A stretch of DNA of 64,000 nucleotides from a virus. The translations under genes were made by a program, and so were the position numbers. Under the pieces are notes generated by a model, which did no database searches, was not told the origin of the DNA, and was given only the letters and a program-made list of their open reading frames with translations. The DNA is taken from IMG/VR virus record IMGVR_UViG_3300027902_000001, positions 9,496 to 73,495 of that record. One strand, written 5' to 3'. Positions 10,073 through 26,774 of the stretch are shown here, piece after piece (positions within the stretch are counted from its first letter, which is position 1; each line of letters opens with the position of its first letter).

Positions 10073-10897
10073 CTATTTTGTAGACTTGCCATGCGATAGC
10101 CATTCCGGTGATGTCAACTCATTGAAATCCAGAGTAGCCGGACCGACGAACTTTTGTGGCGGCGCGGGCTGTCCATTTCCCCCAATGTCTATCTTTCCAT
10201 CACGCTGCCAACCAGCAAGCGTCTTAGAGATATATCCGATACCCAAGAATGGGCGATCCCGGTTTTGATTACAGACTCCAATGGCCCGAATTGTCGCATC
10301 TGCGCCGTACAAATCCTCTAGCTCGCCAAGTTGCTCCGCGTCCATTGGATTGATTGCGCCGCCGCGGGCCTGGTTGAAAGCCTCAAAAACGTTCTGTGTG
10401 GCGACTTTGGCGCGGGTGGGGGAACGATTCTCCCTCTCCTTCTTCTCTGTTTCTTCTTCTCCTCTGTGTGGCGCTACAGTATCGTTATTGGAGTCACGTA
10501 ACGGCGTTACTAACTCGTTGTGATCATTATCAGGTGGCGATACACGACACTCCTTGGCCCGTTTCCGGTGGGCGCTGACACGCTCAGCAACGCGTTCTGG
10601 ATCATCAGACGGCGGCTTGGCTTGACGCTTTTGCCAGTGTGTCACACTCCAGATGTCAGTCATGCCATCGAGAGTCAGGATACCAACACCTTGGAGGGCG
10701 TTCATGTCACCTATTAGGTCTTCTGGATCGGTATGCAGCAACCAGGATAGATCGTTGATTGATGGCAGATCGCCATCTAGCCCACAATCTCCTGCGACCA
10801 AGAATAGACTGATGCAGGTTCGATATTGACGGTCGGTCAGTCGTCCCATCTTGGGGTCGCGCAGAATTTCCGTGTAGAGTTTGATCCAGTAACTCAT
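10073..10897 (-). CDS. Replisome organiser / replication initiator with DnaD-like C-terminus
   Basis: WIKLYTEILRDPK N-terminus, ERVSAHR linker, YISKTLAGW DnaD-like motif. Confidence 0.75.
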   Translation of the reverse strand: MSYWIKLYTEILRDPKMGRLTDRQYRTCISLFLVAGDCGLDGDLPSINDLSWLLHTDPEDLIGDMNALQGVGILTLDGMTDIWSVTHWQKRQAKPPSDDPERVAERVSAHRKRAKECRVSPPDNDHNELVTPLRDSNNDTVAPHRGEEETEKKERENRSPTRAKVATQNVFEAFNQARGGAINPMDAEQLGELEDLYGADATIRAIGVCNQNRDRPFLGIGYISKTLAGWQRDGKIDIGGNGQPAPPQKFVGPATLDFNELTSPEWLSHGKSTK

Positions 10898-11469
10898 TGC
10901 GCACCTACGGTTTTTGATATGACTGGAACTTTTTGTAGACCGAAATTGTCATACTCGAATCTGGCTTGCCGGGCGGCGATGTATGCCGCCATCAGGTCTA
11001 CGTTGGTGGCGGTTGGGAAGGAACATCGCATTTCGTCCTTTGTTATCATCACAACGACGATGTTCCCGTCCAATACACGCTCTTTGAACTCTAATCCATG
11101 CAGAGGCATCGGAGCGTCTTTGCTAAGCGCGCAAACCTTTACTATCTCGTATTCACTTGGCCACGGATCACCGATGAAGGCCAACAGGCTGGATTCTGTT
11201 TCTATCACAACCTGTCTCCACAGGCCCCAATTGTCGATGGCTGATGTGCCGGCGGGTTTGATCTCAGCCCAAAACCCACCTCCCTTCCTAGCCCATTCGT
11301 CTTTTGAGTGCGCCAGCCAGAAGTCAGGCAGGTACCAACCTTTGCTTGTGTCGATACCCTCGGTCTCGTATTGATAGCGAATCCCCAGGGAGTCGAAAAA
11401 CACTGCCCACCGCGCTTCGAGTCTCGACCTGAACCTGTAGCCGTTATAGACCGTCTCGATGGCTTTCAT
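10894..11469 (-). CDS. PD-(D/E)xK nuclease-like protein
   Basis: FRSRLEARWAVFFD...YETEG...YLPDF...AEIKP. Confidence 0.75.
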   Translation of the reverse strand: MKAIETVYNGYRFRSRLEARWAVFFDSLGIRYQYETEGIDTSKGWYLPDFWLAHSKDEWARKGGGFWAEIKPAGTSAIDNWGLWRQVVIETESSLLAFIGDPWPSEYEIVKVCALSKDAPMPLHGLEFKERVLDGNIVVVMITKDEMRCSFPTATNVDLMAAYIAARQARFEYDNFGLQKVPVISKTVGAQ

Positions 11470-11679: not shown

Positions 11680-11975
11680 ATCTCGCCTTGGCGCTTGCGC
11701 GGCGCGTTCACGTCAGGCGGCACAGTCCGTAGCCCGGTGCGCAGGTCGCGCAACTCCCACGACCGCTGCTTGCGCGCCAGGCGGCAGATGATCTGGACGC
11801 GCTGCTCGTAGGGCATGGTGTTCCAGCGCGCCAGCATATCGGCGACGAACTGGTCGATCAGGGCGCTCTTGGTGGTGGTAGCGGTCATGGCATGCTCCCG
11901 CCCGCGAAGACGAGAAAGATGATGGCCAGCACTGCCAGCCACAGCAGAAACAGAATACCGATGACGTTACCTGAA

Positions 11976-12865: not shown

Positions 12866-12937
12866 CAGCAGATGCGGGACTCGAACCCGCGTCGTAGCCT
12901 TGAAAGGGCCACATCCTAACCGCTAGAAGAATCTGCC
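12866..12937 (-). tRNA. tRNA-Glu(TTC), CCA not encoded
   Basis: GGCAGAT/ATCTGCT acceptor, TGGCC-CTTTCAA-GGCTA anticodon arm, GCGGG-TTCGAGT-CCCGC T arm. Confidence 0.9.
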
Positions 12938-17436: not shown

Positions 17437-19798
17437 GTTGATCCTCCTGAGCGGCGGCGGCCGCGGCGACGTATTGCGCCGCATCGTCCAGCAGGGCGCG
17501 CGCGGCCTGAGCCGCAGCGGGCCGCCCGCACGTGTCCATGTAGTCAGCCTGGCCGCGCACCTGCTCCGCGGTCAGGCGACCGGTGATGTTGCCCGGTCGG
17601 ACGGTGTAGCGCGTACCGTAGCCGGTGACGAAGTTGTACTGGCCGGGCAGATAGTTCGGCCCGGTGCAGACGGCGGGACCCAGCGCGGTCAGCCAGACCA
17701 GGTCGCCGGGCGCGAAGGTCTCGTCTTGGTTCATGGTGCGTCTCCGTAGTGCTTGGGGTGATCCGACCAGTGGCGGTCGTAGGGCGTCGGCGCGTCCGGG
17801 TCATCTTTGAGCAGGTCTTGCAGGCGCGCGTAGGCGCGGCTGTCGATCACGTCGCCTTGGTACAGCGCCTTGAGCAGGTCGCGCAGGGCGGCTTCGAGCC
17901 GCGCGACTTGCTGGCCGATCTCCAGGAGTTCGTCGGCCAGCTTTTCTTTGGTGGTTTCGTCGTAGCATTGGGTCATAGCGCAGCCTCCATAGTGGCAAAG
18001 ACCGACTCGTAGCGGGGCCGGTACAAGTCGGTCGAGTCCGCGATCAAGTTCGGGTCGGCGGTGTTCAGGAAACGTAGGTGTTCTAGCCACAGCAGTTCCC
18101 GTTGTGCATCCAACAGCAGGAACGCCAGGTGGCGCAGTTGTGGTTCGGCGGCGAGGCGGGCGCGGGCAGCCTCCTCAGCCAGCCGCGCGCCGCGCCGGTA
18201 GAGTTCGTCCAGCATGAACTGGACAGCATCGTCGTAGTGCCGGTGATACCAGGCCGGCAACTTCCCCTGGGCGTATGCTTGATGCTCCCACGCGTCCACC
18301 GCGGCGTCGGCCCAGGCCAGGATGTCGTAATCCTCATCGCTCAGCGGGACTTGGGCCGCGTGCGTGGCTTGTGCGCGCAGCCAATTCTCTTGTTCGTCGG
18401 TCAACATGGCATCTCCTATGCGGACTGCGGCGCGTCCCAACCGATCTGCTTGCTGGTCGCGCTGTGTGCGGCGGCGCCGATCTCCGCACGCTTCTCCTTC
18501 ATTTTGGCGGCAAAGTAATCGCCGGTGAAGCCTTGGAACCAACGCGAGCCGACTGGCTCGAAGCGCCAAAGATAGAGCATGTGGTCGTAGCTCATCTGGT
18601 CGATAAGTCGGCATAGTTGTTCTTCTTCAGTTGTCATGGAACCTCCTAGTAGCCCAGGTGGTACACGTGGCCGGTGGGTGCGTAGGACGTATGGGGATAC
18701 TCGCCTACGCCGACGATCTCGGCCAGGGTGATCTTGGTGCGCGTCAGTTCTGTGACGCGCACCAGTCCGCCGATGCTGCTGCCGCCGTCGCTGTAACCTT
18801 CGTGCAGCAGCAGGATGTCGCCGACGCGCAGCGTGCGCGTCTTGACGGGTGGTTGTGGTTTGGGCATGTTATCCCCCTAGTGGTGGTTTGCGAGCGCCAT
18901 CAGCACGATGGCGGCCACGACGATGCCGACGCCGGCCAGCGACCAGAGGACGTACTGGCCGCAGGTCGCGCCTTGCGGCGCGGCGGGTGTGTGTCGATAG
19001 CGTGGTGGGTTGTGGCGCAGGGTGCGTCTACGCATGGTCGGCTCCGTCTGTGGGCGTCAGTTCGGCCAGGATCGCACTGTAGCGACCGGGCGTCAGTTCG
19101 GTTTGGGCCAGGGCCCGATAGGCTTGGCGCTCAAAGTAGCGCAGGATGTCAGCGTGGATCGTGTCGTCCAGCGCGGCGTGAGAGAATTCCAACAGGCTCT
19201 CCAACTCCTTGATGACCGCGCGATAGCCGGCCGGCTCCAGCCCGGCGCAGCCATTGACGCATGCCATCGCGCGGTCGTAGTCGTCTAGTTCCAGCGTCAC
19301 CGGTCCGAGCATCCGGCCCCTGCGGTCGCGCTGGACCCGGTGGGTATCGTGCTGCCAGATGTGTTTCCAGGGTTCAGGACTCCAGGTCATGGTGATCCCT
19401 CCGGTTGAGATAGTTGACGGCTATAACACACGCACCCGCGCCGAGCACCAAGGGGACGGCCACCGCCAGGTGGTTCACGCCGGTGGCCAGGCCGAGCAGA
19501 AACACGGCGATCACGTAGAGCCAGTCGTGGTTGTGCATGGTCAATCCGCGAGCCAGAAGCCCGCCTCCTTGTATTCGGCTGCGGTCAGATGCGTGATCTT
19601 GGTGGCCGCGGGGATGCAAAGGCCGAGCGGTCTGTCGTCCAGCCATGTCACCTGATCGGCGCGTACCAGGTCAAGACTGCCGTCGCGGTGCAGATAGGTG
19701 ATCCGCATGTCGGGCCATTCCGACGCGCTGACGCGCCGGCCAAAGATCGGTTGGCGTGACCGCATGTCGCGGTCGTCGCGATGGGTAGTGGTTTTCAT
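17426..19798 (-). other. Run of about 9 small, tightly coupled early hypothetical ORFs (e.g. 17426-17734, 17731-17976, 18416-18637, 18646-18867, 19028-19390, 19541-19798)
   Basis: Strong GGAG RBS motifs and stop/start overlaps, all on the minus strand. Confidence 0.6.
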
Positions 19799-19825
19799 TT
19801 CTTCTCCTTGAGTAGTATGCGCGCC

Positions 19826-20608
19826 TCAGCGCGCCAGTCCGAGCCGTGACGCGATGTAGACCCACGTCGCACGGCGTAGTTGCTTGCCGACCACAGCCAG
19901 CAGCGGCGCGTCGTCCGGCGTGCGCGTGTGCTGGAGCAACTCGAAGGCCAGTTGCCGGGGCAGCGGACCCAGCGGCGACTTGGGATCGACGATCACATTC
20001 GCCAGCAGCGAGGGCACCAGGTAGCCCTCCGCGATGTGCGACTGGATGTGATCGTTTTGGGTGGTATCGCCCCAGGTTTGACCGTCCTCGTTCACCATGC
20101 AGCAGTACCAGCAATCGCCGCTACCGGGTGCGGGCAGGCTGCCGGCTAGCAGTGCGTCCACCAGATGCTTGACGTAGGCTTTGGCGTCCTTGGTCAACTG
20201 CGCCTGGCGATCAGCGGCATCCTGGTTGACGCCCTCGACGCGGCCGTCCGGGTAGACGGTGCAGCCGTCGGCGAATGAGTAGGAGGGGATGGGCGCTCCC
20301 GGTGCGGAGTAGAAATACAGCCGCCACTGACCCTTCTCTGACCAGACCCGCCAGTGATTGCCGGCCACGGCCAGCCGCAGCACCTTGTTGATGCGATCCT
20401 GGGTGGTCGCGGTGCGCCAGCCGCCGGTGTTGAGCGTGACGCGCCCATCCGGGTAGCAGGCCGCGATGTCGGTGTTATGCAGCACCGCGGCGATGTGCGG
20501 GTCCACCCCGATAATCCGGCGCACGCGCGTGTTATTACCCCACGCGCGCTCCATTTTGGACTGGCCCGCTTCGATATGGGCCAGCAGTTGCGAGTATGCA
20601 GTTTCCAT
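19826..20608 (-). CDS. Conserved early phage protein
   Basis: LHNTDIA...LNTGGWRTATTQDRIN motif; GDCWYC. Confidence 0.65.
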   Translation of the reverse strand: METAYSQLLAHIEAGQSKMERAWGNNTRVRRIIGVDPHIAAVLHNTDIAACYPDGRVTLNTGGWRTATTQDRINKVLRLAVAGNHWRVWSEKGQWRLYFYSAPGAPIPSYSFADGCTVYPDGRVEGVNQDAADRQAQLTKDAKAYVKHLVDALLAGSLPAPGSGDCWYCCMVNEDGQTWGDTTQNDHIQSHIAEGYLVPSLLANVIVDPKSPLGPLPRQLAFELLQHTRTPDDAPLLAVVGKQLRRATWVYIASRLGLAR

Positions 20609-20632
20609 GTGATCCTCCTGAGACGGTATGGG

Positions 20633-20854
20633 TTACGCGACGAGTGCGTCCAGTTCGGTTTGCGGCACAGTCTTGGCTTGTGCGCCAGCCAGCCAACGGT
20701 TGATGTGTTTCGACGTGGTTTTGCTGTAAGACTGCCCGGTGCGGATGTACTTGCCGTCAACGTACGCGGCGACCGGCGTGGAGTACGAAAACAGGATCGT
20801 CGCGCGCTCTGTATGTAACTCCGTCTGATTGCTGCCAATGGGTATAAGTTGCAT
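20633..20854 (-). CDS. Small conserved phage protein
   Basis: FSYSTPVA...YSKTTSKHIN motif. Confidence 0.7.
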   Translation of the reverse strand: MQLIPIGSNQTELHTERATILFSYSTPVAAYVDGKYIRTGQSYSKTTSKHINRWLAGAQAKTVPQTELDALVA

Positions 20855-20863
20855 GGTATCCTC

Positions 20864-21208
20864 CTACAGCAGGTGCGCGCCCAACCGCGCCGCCACGTCG
20901 CCCCAACAGCCGACGCGGTATGTTTCGGTCAGGTAGTCGTACAGCAGGGTCGTGTCATACGTGTTGCCCTGGTTGACGTAGCTCAGCCTGGGATGGCCTC
21001 CCAGGCGCTTATCCCACACGTACTCGACGCCGTGGCCGTCAATGTCATCGTTGCAGGCTTGCAGGATGCGGTCGCTGCGCGACCAGCCATCAGTCAGGCT
21101 GGTAACTGGAATCGGCCCGCCGTGGATGTAGTCGCGCAGGCGGGCGGAGGCTTCCCAGGTCATGCCCCGGATGAGCATGAGCCGCTTGGATGATGGTGCT
21201 CTAGGCAT
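20864..21208 (-). CDS. Conserved phage protein
   Basis: GHGVEY...YVNQGNTYDTTLLY...WGD motif. Confidence 0.65.
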   Translation of the reverse strand: MPRAPSSKRLMLIRGMTWEASARLRDYIHGGPIPVTSLTDGWSRSDRILQACNDDIDGHGVEYVWDKRLGGHPRLSYVNQGNTYDTTLLYDYLTETYRVGCWGDVAARLGAHLL

Positions 21209-21395
21209 GGTTGACGCTCCCGGCCGCGGCGCGACGATCCAGTTCGTCGTCGATGTGGACGGTCTCGGCTTCGTCCTTCAGGATCGCAATTATCTCGGCG
21301 GCAGGCAAGCCTGATGCGTCGATGGCGGCGTGCAAGGCGCGCCGGAAGTTGATCCGTTGCGCGCGCTCCAATGGTGCGGCTTCGATATGATCCAT
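21201..21395 (-). CDS. Hypothetical protein downstream of hammerhead A
   Basis: RBS AAGGAGG. Confidence 0.55.
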   Translation of the reverse strand: MDHIEAAPLERAQRINFRRALHAAIDASGLPAAEIIAILKDEAETVHIDDELDRRAAAGSVNHA

Positions 21396-21407
21396 GTGTT
21401 TCCTCCT

Positions 21408-21480
21408 TGACCTGGCTCGTTCAGCGCCGGGCAGTCATCCCCGGTCAGAGCCGCGGCCTCCCGACCGCAGCTTTCGCCTG
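21408..21480 (-). ncRNA. Type II hammerhead ribozyme A (variant core)
   Basis: GGC-GAAA-[stem III]-CUC^-[stem I, loop GAUGACUG]-CUGAACGA-GCC, with 3' tail GGUCA pseudoknot. Confidence 0.8.
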
Positions 21481-21481
21481 T

Positions 21482-21700
21482 TCAATCCCCATCATCCTCT
21501 TGCTTGTCACGACCATAGCGATTGCGCAGTACGTAACCGTGGCGGCGTGCATAGGTACGCCAGAAGGCCCGGCTTTGCGCGCCCAGGTCGCCGTGGTAAA
21601 ACCATGACGCGCCCCCATCGGTGGATTGGCTGGCGCAGAAACCATCGCCAAATGGGTCGCCGTTGGGGTAGATTTCAAGGATGTCGGCAGGATTACGCAT
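21482..21700 (-). CDS. Hypothetical protein
   Basis: RBS AAGGAGG; stop lies immediately before hammerhead A. Confidence 0.55.
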   Translation of the reverse strand: MRNPADILEIYPNGDPFGDGFCASQSTDGGASWFYHGDLGAQSRAFWRTYARRHGYVLRNRYGRDKQEDDGD

Positions 21701-22127
21701 GGTTGGCCTCCTTGGATTTATGCGTGGTCAGGTCGGCGCGACAGTAGCGGCACTCGTGGTAGATAGCGCAGCCGTCCTCCCAACTGACGCCGACCAGTAT
21801 GGTGCCGGTCAACTTCTGAAACGGCATACCAGGTGGCACGCGGTCAGCCGGCACGGCCATCATGCCGTAGATCAAGCCCCGGCTCCGATCCTCGTGGTAG
21901 GACTCCCGGCAACCGTCATCGCAGAACTTACGCTGACTCATGGTTAGCCTCCGTAGTGCCAGACTTGGGTGCCGACCGGCAGGCGCTTGCACTTGGGTCC
22001 GCCATGCCAGTCACGCAGGTATGACCGGAACTCCTGCTCGCCGATGGGTTCACGGAACTCGAATGCGCCCAGCGCGTAGGCGTCCAGCGAAAACTTGGCC
22101 GACCAACGTGCGCTTTTACGGGACATG

Positions 22128-23597
22128 CTACGCTGGCTCATGGTTGGCCTCCCGCCACGCGCAGTACATCTTACGCGCCTTGATGTAGATGCTCGGATCG
22201 TCGGCGCAGTATTCCATGACGCCGACCGACAACTCACTGATCTGGTTGGCGTGTTTGCGCGTGCAGTCGCTCGCGCCCTCACTGGCGACGTGGGCCGCCT
22301 CATGGATGACGACGGTGACGAAGCGTTCCCACGACCACTGGGAGATGTGGTCAGTATTCAGGATGATGCGGGTGGCGTCACCTGCGCCGTCGCACTCGTC
22401 CTTGAGCGCCCGACCCTCGATGGGCGTTTCGACCATGCCGCAACACGCCAGTAGGGTCTGCGCGGCGTGCAGCACCGGCTCCGGGATGGGTTTTTGGAGC
22501 GCCTGTTGCGCCTTGACCGTCACGATTTCGGAGACGTTAGGGATGGCGTCCGTCACCCACGCCGGCGGCGCGTAGTAGCCGGTCAGCACCTTACTGTTGG
22601 TCATCGCCGACGCGTCGGCAATCTGGGCCGCGTCGTCCGCACGCGTGGTGGCCCAGGACAGCTTCTTGAGACCCGCGGTCATCTTGAACTGCTTGACGCC
22701 GGCCGCGACAATGCGGGCCGGGGGCGCTTGCATGAACCGGAACTCCTCCGGTTGCGCGCCGTAGTTGGCGGCGTATTTGAGGACGGCGGCGATAGCGTCG
22801 GCGTCCGCGTAGCGGGCGAAGATTTCGCCGCATTCGGTGCGGACGTGCTCCCAGGAGAAGGCGGCCCGGTCGCGGCCGGGCGATTGGGACACGTTGTAGC
22901 TGAGCGCCAGGTTCCACTGCTCGCCGACCCGTTGGCCGCGACTGTACAACTGGCCGGCTTCGGTGATGATCAGCGGCGAGGACGCCTTGGGTGGCCGGTC
23001 GGCCAGGTTGACGCCGACTGCCGCCAGCTTGCACTGCAAGTGCGGATAGACGGCGTAGTTGAGGCCCGGATGGCGGGCGAAGGCTTCATAGGCGTTGGCC
23101 GCGTCCCGCGCTACGCCCGGCCCGGCATACGACCAGTAGGTGCCGCGGCGGGGCGTGGCAGTCTGGTACACGTCCAGCGTGAGCACCTGCTTGCCTCCGC
23201 CGTTATAGTTGGCCAGCCGACCGGTCATGAGCCAGTCCTGGGACGCCAGCAGCTTGACGAAACCGCTGCGCGCGGCGACCAAACTGGAGATCATTTCGCC
23301 TTCGCCGTGCTCGCCGACCGTGGCGTCGTCGCCACGCTTGCCGGACTGGCCCAGCAAAAGGATGGTGTCCAGATCGACGCCGCGGCCGCTGTCGGCCAGG
23401 GTGATGTGGTCGGCGTCGATCACGGTCAGGGCGGGCGCGCACTTGGCCGTCAGGCACTCGTCAAGTTGGTTCTGGACGGATTCCTTGACGGCCTTGGCCG
23501 CGTCCCAATCCGGCACGTAGTCGGCGCTGAGAATGGTCTGGATGGTTTGCGCGTAGGCGTAGGTACGCCCATCCAGGACGATGTTAGTCGGTGACAT
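22128..23597 (-). CDS. GHKL-type ATPase fused to a C-terminal HExxH metallopeptidase-like domain
   Basis: AVKESVQNQLD (N box), DSGRG (G1), GQSGK...VGEHGEG (G2); IHEAAHV. Confidence 0.7.
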   Translation of the reverse strand: MSPTNIVLDGRTYAYAQTIQTILSADYVPDWDAAKAVKESVQNQLDECLTAKCAPALTVIDADHITLADSGRGVDLDTILLLGQSGKRGDDATVGEHGEGEMISSLVAARSGFVKLLASQDWLMTGRLANYNGGGKQVLTLDVYQTATPRRGTYWSYAGPGVARDAANAYEAFARHPGLNYAVYPHLQCKLAAVGVNLADRPPKASSPLIITEAGQLYSRGQRVGEQWNLALSYNVSQSPGRDRAAFSWEHVRTECGEIFARYADADAIAAVLKYAANYGAQPEEFRFMQAPPARIVAAGVKQFKMTAGLKKLSWATTRADDAAQIADASAMTNSKVLTGYYAPPAWVTDAIPNVSEIVTVKAQQALQKPIPEPVLHAAQTLLACCGMVETPIEGRALKDECDGAGDATRIILNTDHISQWSWERFVTVVIHEAAHVASEGASDCTRKHANQISELSVGVMEYCADDPSIYIKARKMYCAWREANHEPA

Positions 23598-23904
23598 CGG
23601 ACTCCTCCCCTGCTTTGATCTGTGCGGCGCGCACCGCGGCCATACGTGCGGTCATGCGCTTGACGCTGCGCAAGTTGTAACCGAGCGACTCCAGTTCCTC
23701 TTTCAGGTCGGCGTATTCGTTTGGCGCGGCCGGCCTGGTCCAGCCGGTGATGCCAACTGATGCCGCGCCATGCTGACCGACGTGCATGCAGGACAACATC
23801 CTGTAGTAACCATCTGCGATCTCCGGGAACAACGCAATGACATCTCCGTCGCCGTCCTTGAACTTGCGGAAGATGACGGTGGTCTGTGCAGTGTCTTGCT
23901 CCAT
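23584..23904 (-). CDS. Conserved phage protein
   Basis: VIFRKF..DVIALFP...MHVGQHG...EYADLKEELESLGY. Confidence 0.7.
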   Translation of the reverse strand: MEQDTAQTTVIFRKFKDGDGDVIALFPEIADGYYRMLSCMHVGQHGAASVGITGWTRPAAPNEYADLKEELESLGYNLRSVKRMTARMAAVRAAQIKAGEESDVTD

Positions 23905-23967
23905 AATAATCCTCCTGAGAGCGTATGTTGGATAGCACCTGACGCGCCATCTTGCTGCGCGTCCATG

Positions 23968-24030
23968 AGGGCCGGCGGGGGAACGATCCCCGCGTACAGT
24001 CTTGGCAGACCGCTGCACCAGCATCAGCCC
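23968..24030 (-). ncRNA. Truncated tRNA-Gly(GCC)-like element
   Basis: GGGCTG/CGGCCC acceptor followed by U; minimal TGC-TGGT-GCA D arm; CGGTC-TGCCAA-GACTG; GCGGGG-ATCGTTC-CCCCGC. Confidence 0.55.
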
Positions 24031-24145
24031 ATGCGCGCATGGTTGGTTCGGCCTGGTAAGCCGCCGACCATGCGCAGACACCCATTGACCGTGATCCTCC
24101 TTGGTTAGTATGCTGCCGCGGCGCATTACCCCGCCAGTGACCCGC

Positions 24146-24454
24146 CTAGTTCGGTCGCGCCAGGTCCAGCGCGACGTGTTCGGCCTGGGCTGGCGTGATG
24201 CTGTCCAGGCCGGCGACGATGCGGTCGGTATGCTCGTCCTCGTGCCGGGTCGCGTGACGCTTGCGCGTGACGACCACTCTGCCGCAACACGTATGGGCCG
24301 TCCAGACACACGGCATGGCGTAGATGCGGGCGTGTTCTTCGGCCAGTTGGATGGCATACGCCAACATGTCCGTCACGCCGTCGAAGGCGTCCGGGTCAAT
24401 GTCAGCGCAGGTGCCGACCGTGAAAGTGTACTTGTCGGTGACGAGCTTAGTCAT
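24146..24454 (-). CDS. Hypothetical protein
   Basis: RBS GGAGG. Confidence 0.55.
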   Translation of the reverse strand: MTKLVTDKYTFTVGTCADIDPDAFDGVTDMLAYAIQLAEEHARIYAMPCVWTAHTCCGRVVVTRKRHATRHEDEHTDRIVAGLDSITPAQAEHVALDLARPN

Positions 24455-24716
24455 GGGATACCTCCATTGCGTCATCCAGCGCCGCCTGTTGCGTCGCGAC
24501 ATGCGCGTTGATTGCATCCTGCACGTGACCGGATTTGAGTGCCGCGAACGCGCGCAGACACTTCAGGTGGTCGTGGCACTCGGCGACTATCCTGGCAATG
24601 GCTATCCCAAAGGTTAGCGGGTTGCGCGGAGTTCGGGCTGTGCGCTGACTTTCGATGCGTAGCGCACGGAGAATTTCGATCTTCTGGTTGTACTGCTCAT
24701 TGGTCATACTTGGCAT
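24447..24716 (-). CDS. Hypothetical protein downstream of hammerhead B
   Basis: RBS AGGAGG. Confidence 0.55.
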   Translation of the reverse strand: MPSMTNEQYNQKIEILRALRIESQRTARTPRNPLTFGIAIARIVAECHDHLKCLRAFAALKSGHVQDAINAHVATQQAALDDAMEVSHD

Positions 24717-24731
24717 GGGATACCTCCTGCT

Positions 24732-24802
24732 TGACCTGCCTCATTCAGCGCCGGACAGTCATCTCCGGGCAGACCGGACGCGCCTGGCGTCCGGTTTCGG
24801 CA
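24732..24802 (-). ncRNA. Type II hammerhead ribozyme B (variant core)
   Basis: UGCC-GAAA-CCGGACGC...GCGUCCG-GUC^-[stem I, loop GAUGACUG]-CUGAAUGA-GGCA-GGUCA. Confidence 0.85.
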
Positions 24803-24931
24803 CGTTACTGCGCGCCGGCCAGCGCGTCGCGCAGCGCGCTGAGCCACGACCGCCACGGCCAGCGGACGCCGATGCCGTGACGGGAGACGAGAATACCTGA
24901 ACGGGAAAAGGTGATGGTCATGGGATACCTC

Positions 24932-25261
24932 CTAGTATTCGCAGACCAGATAGACGTAGCGCCAGTTACGACCGGCCGCGGTTGGCGGTTGTATGTGGCA
25001 TGGCCAGCGACCACGGCGCAGCAACTTCTTGACAGTCGCCGGCGGGATGGCGTGACGGAAGTCTTGCTCCGTCCACACCAGTTCCCACACCGGCTGCCCC
25101 AACCAGGCCAGTTGGGCGTAGTAGTTACCACCCGCATAGTCGCCATCTTGCCAGCAGTCCTGCGCCATGCTCTGCATAACGGACGGCGAAAGCAGGTGCT
25201 CGCATTCGGTTACGATATGCTCGCTGGTCGTTCCCTGATGGATCGTGTAACGCTTGAGCAT
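24932..25261 (-). CDS. Hypothetical protein
   Basis: ORF in the early operon. Confidence 0.5.
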   Translation of the reverse strand: MLKRYTIHQGTTSEHIVTECEHLLSPSVMQSMAQDCWQDGDYAGGNYYAQLAWLGQPVWELVWTEQDFRHAIPPATVKKLLRRGRWPCHIQPPTAAGRNWRYVYLVCEY

Positions 25262-25272
25262 TAGACACCATC

Positions 25273-25560
25273 CTAAGCCAGATACAGACCACAGATCACG
25301 TGGTCGGTGTCAAGCGCGCCCCATTCCTCGCGCGGATAGCGGAGAAGCACCGCGCTGAAGTAGGTGTCGACCACCCGCATGTCCCAGCCGGCGAGGCTGG
25401 ATTGCTCCATGTCGTGCAGGTCATAGCACCAACCCTTGTAACGCACGAACGCGCCGGGGTCGGCCGGGTCATGGTAGTCCAACTCAGCTTGTTCGCGCGG
25501 CGTGAGTTGGTTCCAGTCCAGCACCAAGCGCGGGTGCCGGTTCGTAATGATCTTCGGCAT
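25273..25560 (-). CDS. Conserved phage protein
   Basis: FVRYKGWCYDL...GWD...DTYFSAVL motif. Confidence 0.7.
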   Translation of the reverse strand: MPKIITNRHPRLVLDWNQLTPREQAELDYHDPADPGAFVRYKGWCYDLHDMEQSSLAGWDMRVVDTYFSAVLLRYPREEWGALDTDHVICGLYLA

Positions 25561-26099
25561 CTTACCCTCCTACTCCGTGAGACGTATGGTTAGTTGTACA
25601 CGTACTCGACCGGCGTCAGCAGCAGCCAATACTTCTGGTTGCGCAACTGCGCCAGCGCCGCCTTGGTCGCCTTGGCGCGGGGGTTCTGACCCCGCACCGT
25701 CACGGACGCGCTGAACATGCGTTCCTTGCCGGTTACGGCGTCAATGCCGAGCACTTGCGCCCGGCAGGTGCAAACCACCTTGGAACTGTTGGCCTTAGAC
25801 ATGGGATACCTCCGTTCCTGAGCGTGTATGGATGAACGCAACTCTTGGCTCACAGCCAAGCCTCTGACCGCGCCCGCGCGTGGCCAGAAGTCTGACCGGG
25901 AACGTATGGTTACGCCCGCGCCGCCCGTAAGTACATGGACGCCAGCGCCAGGAATGCACCGGCCAGCGCGTAGTAACCCGATTCGATCTCCCACAGCGCC
26001 ATATCCAGCGCCCGTGCCGTACAGCCCAAGAAATACAGACGATCTTTCATGGTATCCTCCCCAAGATGTATGGTTACTTGCCCGGAACGTAGGGTTACT

Positions 26100-26390
26100 T
26101 GCTACTCATGGTCATAACGTGGCGCGGTATTATCCTTACCAGTTGCCCGCTACCTGACGCGGTCTGTCATCCCGCGACGTTTTACGACGCCCGCGCTACC
26201 AGCTTCGGATATGGCGGCTGACTCTAGGCTGGATCGCACGCTATGACCATGCAGGAGACTAACTCCCACCCCCGACTGACCCTCCACATCAGCCGGGACG
26301 CGACGGGCACTTGAGGGATTCCCGTCAAATTCTTACCGATTGCTTGAGTTGCTCGCCGGCCATCCGACACGTGCCGTCTGAGAACAACAC
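26100..26390 (-). ncRNA. Candidate large structured RNA
   Basis: No ORF; several hairpins and a 15-bp long-range stem CATGGTCATAGCGTG/CACGTTATGACCATG. Confidence 0.5.
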
Positions 26391-26576
26391 CTAGGCGACT
26401 TTCCCACTGATGAGCGGTCCAAAGTTGTCGTAGGCGTAACGCATCCCCGCCGCATACGTCTCAAACAGCCCCAGGGTAACGCGCTCAAATCCGCCGCTTA
26501 CCATGCCAGTGTGGTACACAAGAACTGCGTCCATCTTCTCCATGATGATCCTCCTGGTGATGTATGGTGATGGCGC

Positions 26577-26774
26577 TTACGCCGGTAGCTCTATCCAGTA
26601 TGCGCACAGCATGGTGATGACCAACGACATGATGTAGATGTTCACAGCCGTCCCCGTACTTGCTACCGCTTGGGACAGCCGGTTGATCTCGGCGCGCACT
26701 TGCTTGGCGTCCCCATGCGTTTCGGCCATGATCTCGTCAAAATACTGCTTTGCTTCCGCCCTGTACGCTTCCAT
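26577..26774 (-). CDS. Small hypothetical protein
   Basis: RBS AGGAGG; hydrophobic C-terminus. Confidence 0.5.
   Translation of the reverse strand: MEAYRAEAKQYFDEIMAETHGDAKQVRAEINRLSQAVASTGTAVNIYIMSLVITMLCAYWIELPA

Follow-up and report, generated by a model that had tools for sequence, protein, structure and literature searches.

Two candidate type II hammerhead ribozymes with a rare core variant between the genes of a phage

The IMG/VR record IMGVR_UViG_3300027902_000001 comprises 73,495 bp, has direct terminal repeats and is rated a complete virus genome, and the 64,000-nucleotide (nt) stretch of it analysed here (bases 9496-73495, hereafter the window) carries on its minus strand two related elements, HH_A and HH_B, which are probably type II hammerhead ribozymes with a rare core variant that process a polycistronic transcript through slow self-cleavage. 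The hammerhead assignment, as read from the letters, is well supported in silico, by the order of the residues, the predicted fold, covariation between the copies, intergenic placement and the match to a curated model, and from it we infer that both elements would be transcribed in a single RNA, that they would cleave and at what pace, and that this would affect mRNA stability or translation. Elements of this kind are already known, since hammerheads between phage genes have been on record since 2011, and the novelty is modest: it lies in an 8-nt core box (CUGAAYGA) that is retained in two diverged copies.

Both elements lie on the coding strand and each occupies the whole gap between a stop codon, 2 nt 5' of the element, and the next ribosome-binding site (RBS), the element ending at, or one to three bases 5' of, a Shine-Dalgarno sequence (Table 1). 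Read from 21479 down to 21408, HH_A consists of A, GGC, GAAA, a 22-nt hairpin, UC and a 23-nt hairpin (stem I, in which an A is bulged and the loop is GAUGACUG), followed by CUGAACGA, GCC, A and GGUCA. HH_B, from 24802 down to 24732, consists of UGCC, GAAA, a 21-nt hairpin, UC and a 23-nt hairpin (here C is the bulged base and the loop is identical), followed by CUGAAUGA, GGCA and GGUCA. This is the type II order, in which stem II is open and stems I and III are capped by loops, and the pairs next to the core are intact in all three helices. Stem I has seven pairs and a one-base bulge and begins with U1.1-G2.1 in both copies, stem II begins with G10.1-C11.1 and has three pairs in HH_A and four in HH_B, and stem III has 10 and 9 pairs, respectively, counting A15.1-U16.1. 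All the core residues are present and in order (C3 U4 G5 A6 ... G8 A9, G12 A13 A14, A15.1-U16.1, C17 and G10.1-C11.1), and the triplets preceding the predicted cuts, CUC in HH_A and GUC in HH_B, both conform to NUH. The departure from the standard core is confined to the box, which in a canonical hammerhead has 7 nt (C3 U4 G5 A6 N7 G8 A9) and here has eight in both copies, that is, the six conserved letters in order with a single base too many, located between A6 and G8. In the Rfam alignment the second A is treated as inserted after A6, although, with an A adjoining A6, an insertion at N7 would look the same as one directly after A6.

Table 1. Window coordinates of the two elements, of their parts and of other features mentioned in the text
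Feature	Position	Strand	Remarks
HH_A, type II hammerhead-like	21406-21479	minus	Rfam RF02276, 20.1 bits, model 1-66 of 66
HH_B, type II hammerhead-like	24730-24802	minus	Rfam RF02276, 32.0 bits, model 1-66 of 66
Stop codon 5' of HH_A	21482-21484	minus	TGA
Stop codon 5' of HH_B	24805-24807	minus	TAA
HH_A GAAA	21472-21475	minus
HH_B GAAA	24795-24798	minus
HH_A predicted scissile bond	21447-21448	minus	C21448 (C17 of CUC) / U21447; sequence reading
HH_B predicted scissile bond	24771-24772	minus	C24772 (C17 of GUC) / U24771; sequence reading
HH_A loop I UGACU	21433-21437	minus	predicted pseudoknot partner of the tail
HH_B loop I UGACU	24757-24761	minus	predicted pseudoknot partner of the tail
HH_A 8-nt core box CUGAACGA	21417-21424	minus	Rfam alignment
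HH_B 8-nt core box CUGAAUGA	24741-24748	minus	Rfam alignment: second A is an insertion after A6
HH_A 3' tail GGUCA	21408-21412	minus	final A is the first base of AAGGAGG (21402-21408); ATG 21393-21395
HH_B 3' tail GGUCA	24732-24736	minus	pseudoknot partner; then AGGAGG 24723-24728, ATG 24714-24716
Stretch between both predicted cuts	21448-24771	minus	3,324 nt
72-aa open reading frame (ORF)	21482-21700	minus	stop 2 nt before HH_A; no family match
64-aa ORF	21201-21395	minus	immediately 3' of HH_A; no family match
38-codon ORF	24805-24921	minus	ATG at 24921 behind AGGAGG; ends 2 nt before HH_B
113-aa ORF	24805-25146	minus	as listed
109-aa gene	24932-25261		upstream of HH_B
89-aa ORF	24447-24716	minus	immediately 3' of HH_B; no family match
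102-aa ORF	24146-24454		between both predicted cuts
489-aa protein	22128-23597	minus	largest gene between the ribozymes
14-mer GGAGGTATCCCATG, four copies	24452-24465, 24714-24727, 24919-24932, 25800-25813	minus
DnaD-like loader	10073-10897		within the minus-strand array
DnaB-like helicase	5606-6955		within the minus-strand array
RNA_ligase family protein, 223 aa	2321-2992	minus	PF09414, 63 bits; phrog_548
Transfer RNA (tRNA) gene	12866-12937	minus	53.9 bits

The two copies have diverged in a manner that keeps the helices paired. Pairs were read by script from the coordinates, the MAFFT alignments not being true to structure, and this revealed two compensatory double changes, one in stem II, where pair 11.2/10.2 is G-C in HH_A and C-G in HH_B, and one in the pair closing the loop of stem I, which is G-C in HH_A and A-U in HH_B. 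The sequences of stem III are unrelated, yet pairing is perfect in each. By complementarity, loop I could also pair with the bases just 3' of stem II to form the pseudoknot of at least four pairs that most, but not all, type II members possess: UGACU/GGUCA offers four Watson-Crick pairs and one G-U in both copies. A comparison of these letters with those of a related metagenome contig discussed below, L249 (UGGCC/GGCCA), and with the Rfam consensus (UGGC/GCCA) indicates that the middle pair changes on both sides. Two to four sequences do not lend themselves to a statistical test of covariation, but all the changes read as compatible with a hammerhead. A first, sequence-only reading of the window had proposed this architecture and is borne out on these points, since its coordinates lie within 1-2 nt of those given by Rfam and the type II order is recovered alike by direct reading, by the RF02276 alignment and by the pair script. 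The complementarity of loop I and tail, the one-nucleotide surplus over CUGANGA, the bulge in stem I, the covariation listed above, the position of both predicted cuts, their distance of ~3.3 kb (3,324 nt) and the filling of the gaps from stop to RBS (TGA/AAGGAGG for HH_A and TAA/AGGAGG for HH_B) were likewise found as it had described them.

Independent support comes from Rfam, whose type II model (RF02276, Hammerhead_II) matches both elements over its full length, with expectation values (E) over the 73.5-kb genome of 3.8e-6 for HH_B and 0.005 for HH_A, while a third match in the genome is partial and, at 13.4 bits, noise. HH_B has an E of 7.8e-4 in a scan of 3.6 kb with all families and, when the whole window is compared with 4,227 Rfam families, is the sole ribozyme match at E <= 1 (E 0.014); at gathering thresholds the same window yields nothing but a tRNA, the product of a single gene. 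Controls for chance point the same way. The pattern CTGAANGA-N3-5-AGGTCAAG occurs twice, as opposed to 0.00 expected from 100 shuffles, and a descriptor of the entire architecture (GAAA, stem III, U then H, stem I, CUGA-N1-2-GA, stem II) finds exactly two matches on both strands of the window, HH_A and HH_B. In 100 dinucleotide-preserving shuffles, this descriptor finds on average 0.1 loose matches and none with stems of at least 7/3/8 pairs. When it was run on 239 loci (2.0 Mb), matches of the quality seen in the window were restricted, among the matches listed, to two loci of this same genome. As for folding, the minimum-free-energy (MFE) topology of HH_B is the hammerhead fold, and in HH_A the hammerhead fold lies within 0.7 kcal/mol of the MFE.

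How might such elements work? We propose that HH_A and HH_B would be transcribed within a long minus-strand polycistronic RNA of the 73.5-kb phage, that each would fold into a three-way junction in which loop I docks on the 3' tail (UGACU with GGUCA), and that the RNA would then cut itself after C17, that is, after C24772 in HH_B and C21448 in HH_A. Cutting would probably be slow in view of the extra core nucleotide. The upstream product would carry a 2',3'-cyclic phosphate and have the long hairpin of stem III at its 3' end, and the downstream product would be an mRNA with a 5'-OH whose first structure is the stem I hairpin and in which the Shine-Dalgarno immediately follows the ribozyme. The transcript would in this way be split into pieces that can be stable, and be translated, independently of one another. 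It is known from work on RNase E that bacterial mRNAs are shielded from 5'-end-dependent decay by a 5'-OH and by a hairpin at the 5' end.

Relatives of these elements are rare. No match to 21300-24900 was found by blastn among 50,697 phage records, and a DNA pattern scan of IMG/VR viral contigs gave 0 matches. Two pattern scans for relatives returned at least 118 stretches each, and of the 239 loci to which the descriptor was applied none from outside this genome equalled HH_A and HH_B in quality. A further DNA pattern scan returned a single locus, which is AT-rich and devoid of hammerhead features; none of 18 pattern matches in genome contigs has a stem I or GAAA. The 489-aa protein encoded between the elements gave another way in, with no locus in viral or genome contigs and 15 in metagenome contigs, among which L249, a 92.9-kb contig encoding a relative 33% identical to it, has a Hammerhead_II match of 27.0 bits. 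This match lies ~0.9 kb downstream of the gene for that relative, between a stop codon and AAGGAGG-ATG, and its 8-nt box (UUUGAAGA) is non-consensus, with U in place of C3 and an extra U. L249 also has two matches to the transfer-messenger RNA (tmRNA) model, at 11187-11313 and 11833-11904 (58.8 and 45.6 bits, for a gathering score of 47), which cover tRNA-like ends only. The 89-aa protein has no tblastn match in phages, and the 102-aa protein no homologue other than itself. The Hammerhead_II model was also run on 31 of the 55 IMG/VR records found via their terminase. None passes the cut-off, but one locus (G008/L328) falls just short of it at 35.9 bits, with a canonical CUGAUGA box in an intergenic position followed by AGGAGG-ATG. 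The layout of stop codon, hammerhead, Shine-Dalgarno and ATG is thus common to this phage, L249 and G008/L328, and hammerheads so arranged occur sporadically among the distant kin of this phage; the CUGAAYGA box was seen, among the relatives searched, in this phage only.

A search for sequencing runs that contain the stretch listed no RNA run. Closer relatives were sought in Logan contigs from four metagenomic DNA runs, in which the bins covering HH_B (24688-24808) are almost uncovered and uninformative. One contig (X3, 18.5-fold depth) matches the window at 80% or more over ~21409-21480, which is nearly exactly HH_A, and continues downstream into unlike sequence with its own AGGAGG-ATG, which is weak evidence, from a single contig, in favour of the hammerhead reading. 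Single low-depth contigs from two other runs differ from the window in the stretch of small ORFs just upstream of HH_A, one (X1) skipping 441 nt at 21696-22136 and the other (X2) having 32 other letters in place of the 232 nt at 21953-22184, and the gene content between the ribozymes therefore seems to vary among close relatives.

Several of these and other findings weigh against HH_A and HH_B being working ribozymes. The sequence-only reading had named the Rfam hammerhead models as a check, and Hammerhead_II does match at both places, but neither element, at 32.0 and 20.1 bits, reaches the curated gathering score of 37, and HH_A taken by itself has an E of 1 in the local all-family scan. Folding energies are no better than those of shuffles (z-scores of -0.84 and -1.48), so that thermodynamics by itself says little, and the MFE structure of the 83-nt stretch around HH_A is without stem II. 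Among relatives, one of the 15 metagenome loci found through the 489-aa protein has a Hammerhead_II match, and in the 31 terminase-related records there is one good match along with three weak ones (12-15 bits). The box of L249 departs from consensus, which suggests that elements in this lineage may be decaying, and the ORFs flanking HH_A and the L249 match are not homologous, so the shared position is approximate at best. In the X3 contig, G21442 is changed to U (RNA strand) in stem I with no compensating change listed. Last, the surplus nucleotide sits in the strand in which the sole published natural insertion that we found (A6a) had low activity, and an insertion after A6 should disturb a backbone contact with U4 (PMC3088659, section 8); our literature search returned no relevant precedent for such a variant beyond that paper.

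It is conceivable, although on balance unlikely, that HH_A and HH_B are dead or near-dead derivatives of hammerheads in which the extra core nucleotide abolishes useful cleavage. They would then persist as structured intergenic RNA, with a hairpin rich in GC following one gene and another hairpin, with the pseudoknot, preceding the next RBS; such a structure might stabilise the RNA, insulate translation or be recognised by a host RNase, or it might have no function at all. The scores under the gathering threshold, the box of L249 and the uncompensated change in X3 would all sit well with decay, as would the low activity of A6a and the inactivity of other core-variant candidates (PMC3088659, section 8). 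Yet the two copies, which have diverged completely in stem III and in a compensatory way in stems I and II, have lost none of the catalytic residues, and the NUH triplet, the shared 8-nt box and the pseudoknot are likewise intact. A plain hairpin would need neither GAAA, nor CUGA..GA, nor C17. Moreover, A6a is weak and yet active, as reported in the same section of PMC3088659.

Less probable still, in our opinion, is a conditional ribozyme, in which the surplus nucleotide would tie cleavage to a condition such as Mn2+ in place of Mg2+, a phage or host factor, or the passage of ribosomes over the neighbouring stop codon and RBS, and processing would be switched during infection rather than constitutive. 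The same surplus A in both diverged copies is consistent with this idea, and so is the location of each element, with a stop codon 2 nt on its 5' side and a Shine-Dalgarno touching the pseudoknot tail. There are also parallels, since the A6C core variant of phage Bcep176 is described as cleaving poorly with Mg2+ and well with Mn2+ (PMC7151607), and insertions near C3 in halophiles have been proposed to link activity to ion concentration (PMC3088659; PMC7151607). However, the 3' halves of HH_A and HH_B are ~88% identical, and common descent or gene conversion, and not selection, may be why both have the insertion.

That unrelated intergenic hairpins, such as processing or attenuation signals, merely happen to fit the hammerhead pattern is very unlikely and already disfavoured: the sub-threshold Rfam scores and the weak Hammerhead_II matches (E <= 10) in 11 of 14 control genomes would leave room for it, but the per-genome E values, the shuffled controls for descriptor and pattern, the complete set of core residues, the pseudoknot and the fact that both elements lie on the coding strand between a stop codon and an RBS all argue against it.

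Equally improbable is a further suggestion of the sequence-only reading, namely that the 3,324-nt RNA (24771 down to 21448), once cut at both ends, would be joined end to end by an RtcB-type ligase. With such a ligase supplied by the host, the result would be a circular phage mRNA that escapes exonucleases and carries the 89-aa, 102-aa and 489-aa genes plus several small ones. The chemistry of the ends, 5'-OH and 2',3'-cyclic phosphate, would suit RtcB, and the phage does encode an RNA-ligase-family protein (PF09414). However, no RtcB was found in the complete 73.5-kb phage genome, and ligases of the PF09414 family join a 3'-OH to a 5'-phosphate. Such a ligase would need healed ends, and neither an AAA_33 kinase nor a PNK3P phosphatase was found in the genome. 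Furthermore, in a cofold of the two termini that excision would produce (5' half of HH_A and 3' half of HH_B), the hammerhead stem II does not form and GGC of HH_A pairs with the tail of HH_B instead of with its stem II strand. As stem II differs between the copies, the ends would thus not rebuild a hammerhead able to hold or religate them. Nor is the idea new, because the authors of the first description of hammerhead clusters considered spliced or circular products and, according to the available text, looked for them and detected none (PMC3088659).

The minus-strand gene array, which includes a DnaD-like loader, a DnaB-like helicase and the RNA-ligase-family protein, spans the window from ~28.4 kb down to at least 2.3 kb, and a plus-strand array that carries a methyltransferase and the large terminase starts at ~30 kb. 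HH_A and HH_B sit promoter-proximal in the minus-strand array, among small ORFs without family matches, and the operon may be called early judging solely from this position. A scan of 18000-30500 for promoters and terminators gave counts not above those of shuffles. The window is lower in GC between 26000 and 30000 (0.53-0.55, as compared to ~0.62-0.65 elsewhere), where the two arrays diverge, and this stretch is likely to be a control region. Between the two predicted cuts lie the 89-aa and 102-aa ORFs, the gene for the 489-aa protein and several small ORFs. The 489-aa protein has 13 metagenomic relatives, an invariant HExxH (H432, E433, H436) close to its C-terminus and an N-terminal part that shares 25-38% identity with phage proteins carrying the annotation of histidine-kinase-like ATPase; it has no Pfam match at E <= 0.01.

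Upstream of HH_B, the apparent real units are the 109-aa gene and the 38-codon ORF starting at ATG 24921. The listed 113-aa ORF, whose translation is rich in R, W and C and looks spurious, is probably a spurious 5' extension of the 38-codon ORF. An exact 14-mer comprising Shine-Dalgarno, spacer and start codon (GGAGGTATCCCATG) precedes four successive small genes, although 0.22 matches would be expected even with two mismatches permitted, and this repeat could be a recombination or translational-coupling signal. The idea that HH_B is part of a gene-splitting insertion, raised by relatives that seemed to lack 24449-24897, was rejected: the joints (24894/24897 to 24448) run backwards, and the sequence they enclose is colinear with 24914-24895 of the window. 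The apparent gap arose because the aligner placed the RBS and ATG of the relatives on the 14-mer at 24452-24465 and not on the one at 24919-24932.

The pair formed by HH_A and HH_B is a natural test case for whether a surplus nucleotide between A6 and G8 is tolerated, or used to slow or condition cleavage, since the copies have drifted wherever pairing allows and nevertheless retain the same 8-nt box. If they cleave, searches that are strict for CUGANGA or that apply the Rfam threshold would miss a class of active phage ribozymes, and if they do not, they would be an example of hammerheads decaying into structured spacers. Either outcome would be of interest chiefly to ribozyme specialists.

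Related known systems include retrozymes and viroid-like RNAs, small RNAs that are non-coding or replicating, whose ends stem from like ribozymes and whose ligation restores a whole one. There, too, an RNA is freed by two hammerhead cuts, which leave it with a 5'-OH and a 2',3'-cyclic phosphate (PMC4918200; PMC7761336), but the two ribozymes of this phage differ in stem II, and the RNA would be a 3.3-kb mRNA with no indication of circles. Halophile variants, in which insertions sit beside C3 and which include a U3 form (PMC3088659, section 9; PMC7151607), resemble the box of L249, with its extra U by position 3 and U for C3, whereas HH_A and HH_B keep C3 and have their surplus base on the other side of UGA.

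HH_A and HH_B also resemble the natural type II hammerheads of Perreault et al. (2011; PMC3088659), in which loop I forms a pseudoknot with the 3' tail and which are likewise found in intergenic positions in phages. With the RF02276 model, HH_A and HH_B have in common the permutation, GAAA, A15.1-U16.1, C17, a short stem II, the placement of the pseudoknot and the trailing AAG of the consensus tail. They differ from it in having an 8-nt box (CUGAAYGA) in place of 7 nt, a stem II of three to four pairs where two are marked in the consensus, a UGACU/GGUCA pseudoknot in place of UGGC/GCCA, and a one-base bulge in stem I. The word 'unusual' in the sequence-only reading overstated the case, as clusters of hammerheads on either side of genes, whose identity varies, are known from phages and prophages, and it has been proposed that long phage transcripts are cut by them into shorter mRNAs (PMC3088659). 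In the prophage clusters of Agrobacterium tumefaciens, Azorhizobium caulinodans and Clostridium scindens, at least two hammerheads lie within a few kb of one transcript and bracket genes that vary in identity, processing of the transcript has been proposed, and cleavage in vivo has been demonstrated for the A. tumefaciens set (PMC3088659). Similarly, this phage has two candidate hammerheads on the coding strand, 3.3 kb apart in intergenic gaps of a gene array; unlike in those clusters, the ~3.3 kb that the pair brackets hold several ORFs, and the genome is that of a free phage, with repeats at its termini, and not a prophage.

A parallel to the core itself is A6a, a rare natural variant with an insertion after A6 that cleaves at low activity, other core-variant candidates being inactive (PMC3088659, section 8 and Figure 5). 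Scans of PaP3, which the legend names as one of four sources, gave no Rfam hammerhead at E <= 1 and no type II element, nor was an 8-nt box seen in its intergenic gaps. A6a and the present pair each have one extra nucleotide right after A6, which is where Rfam aligns the surplus A of HH_A and HH_B, and what sets the phage described here apart is that this insertion is kept in two diverged copies of a single genome.

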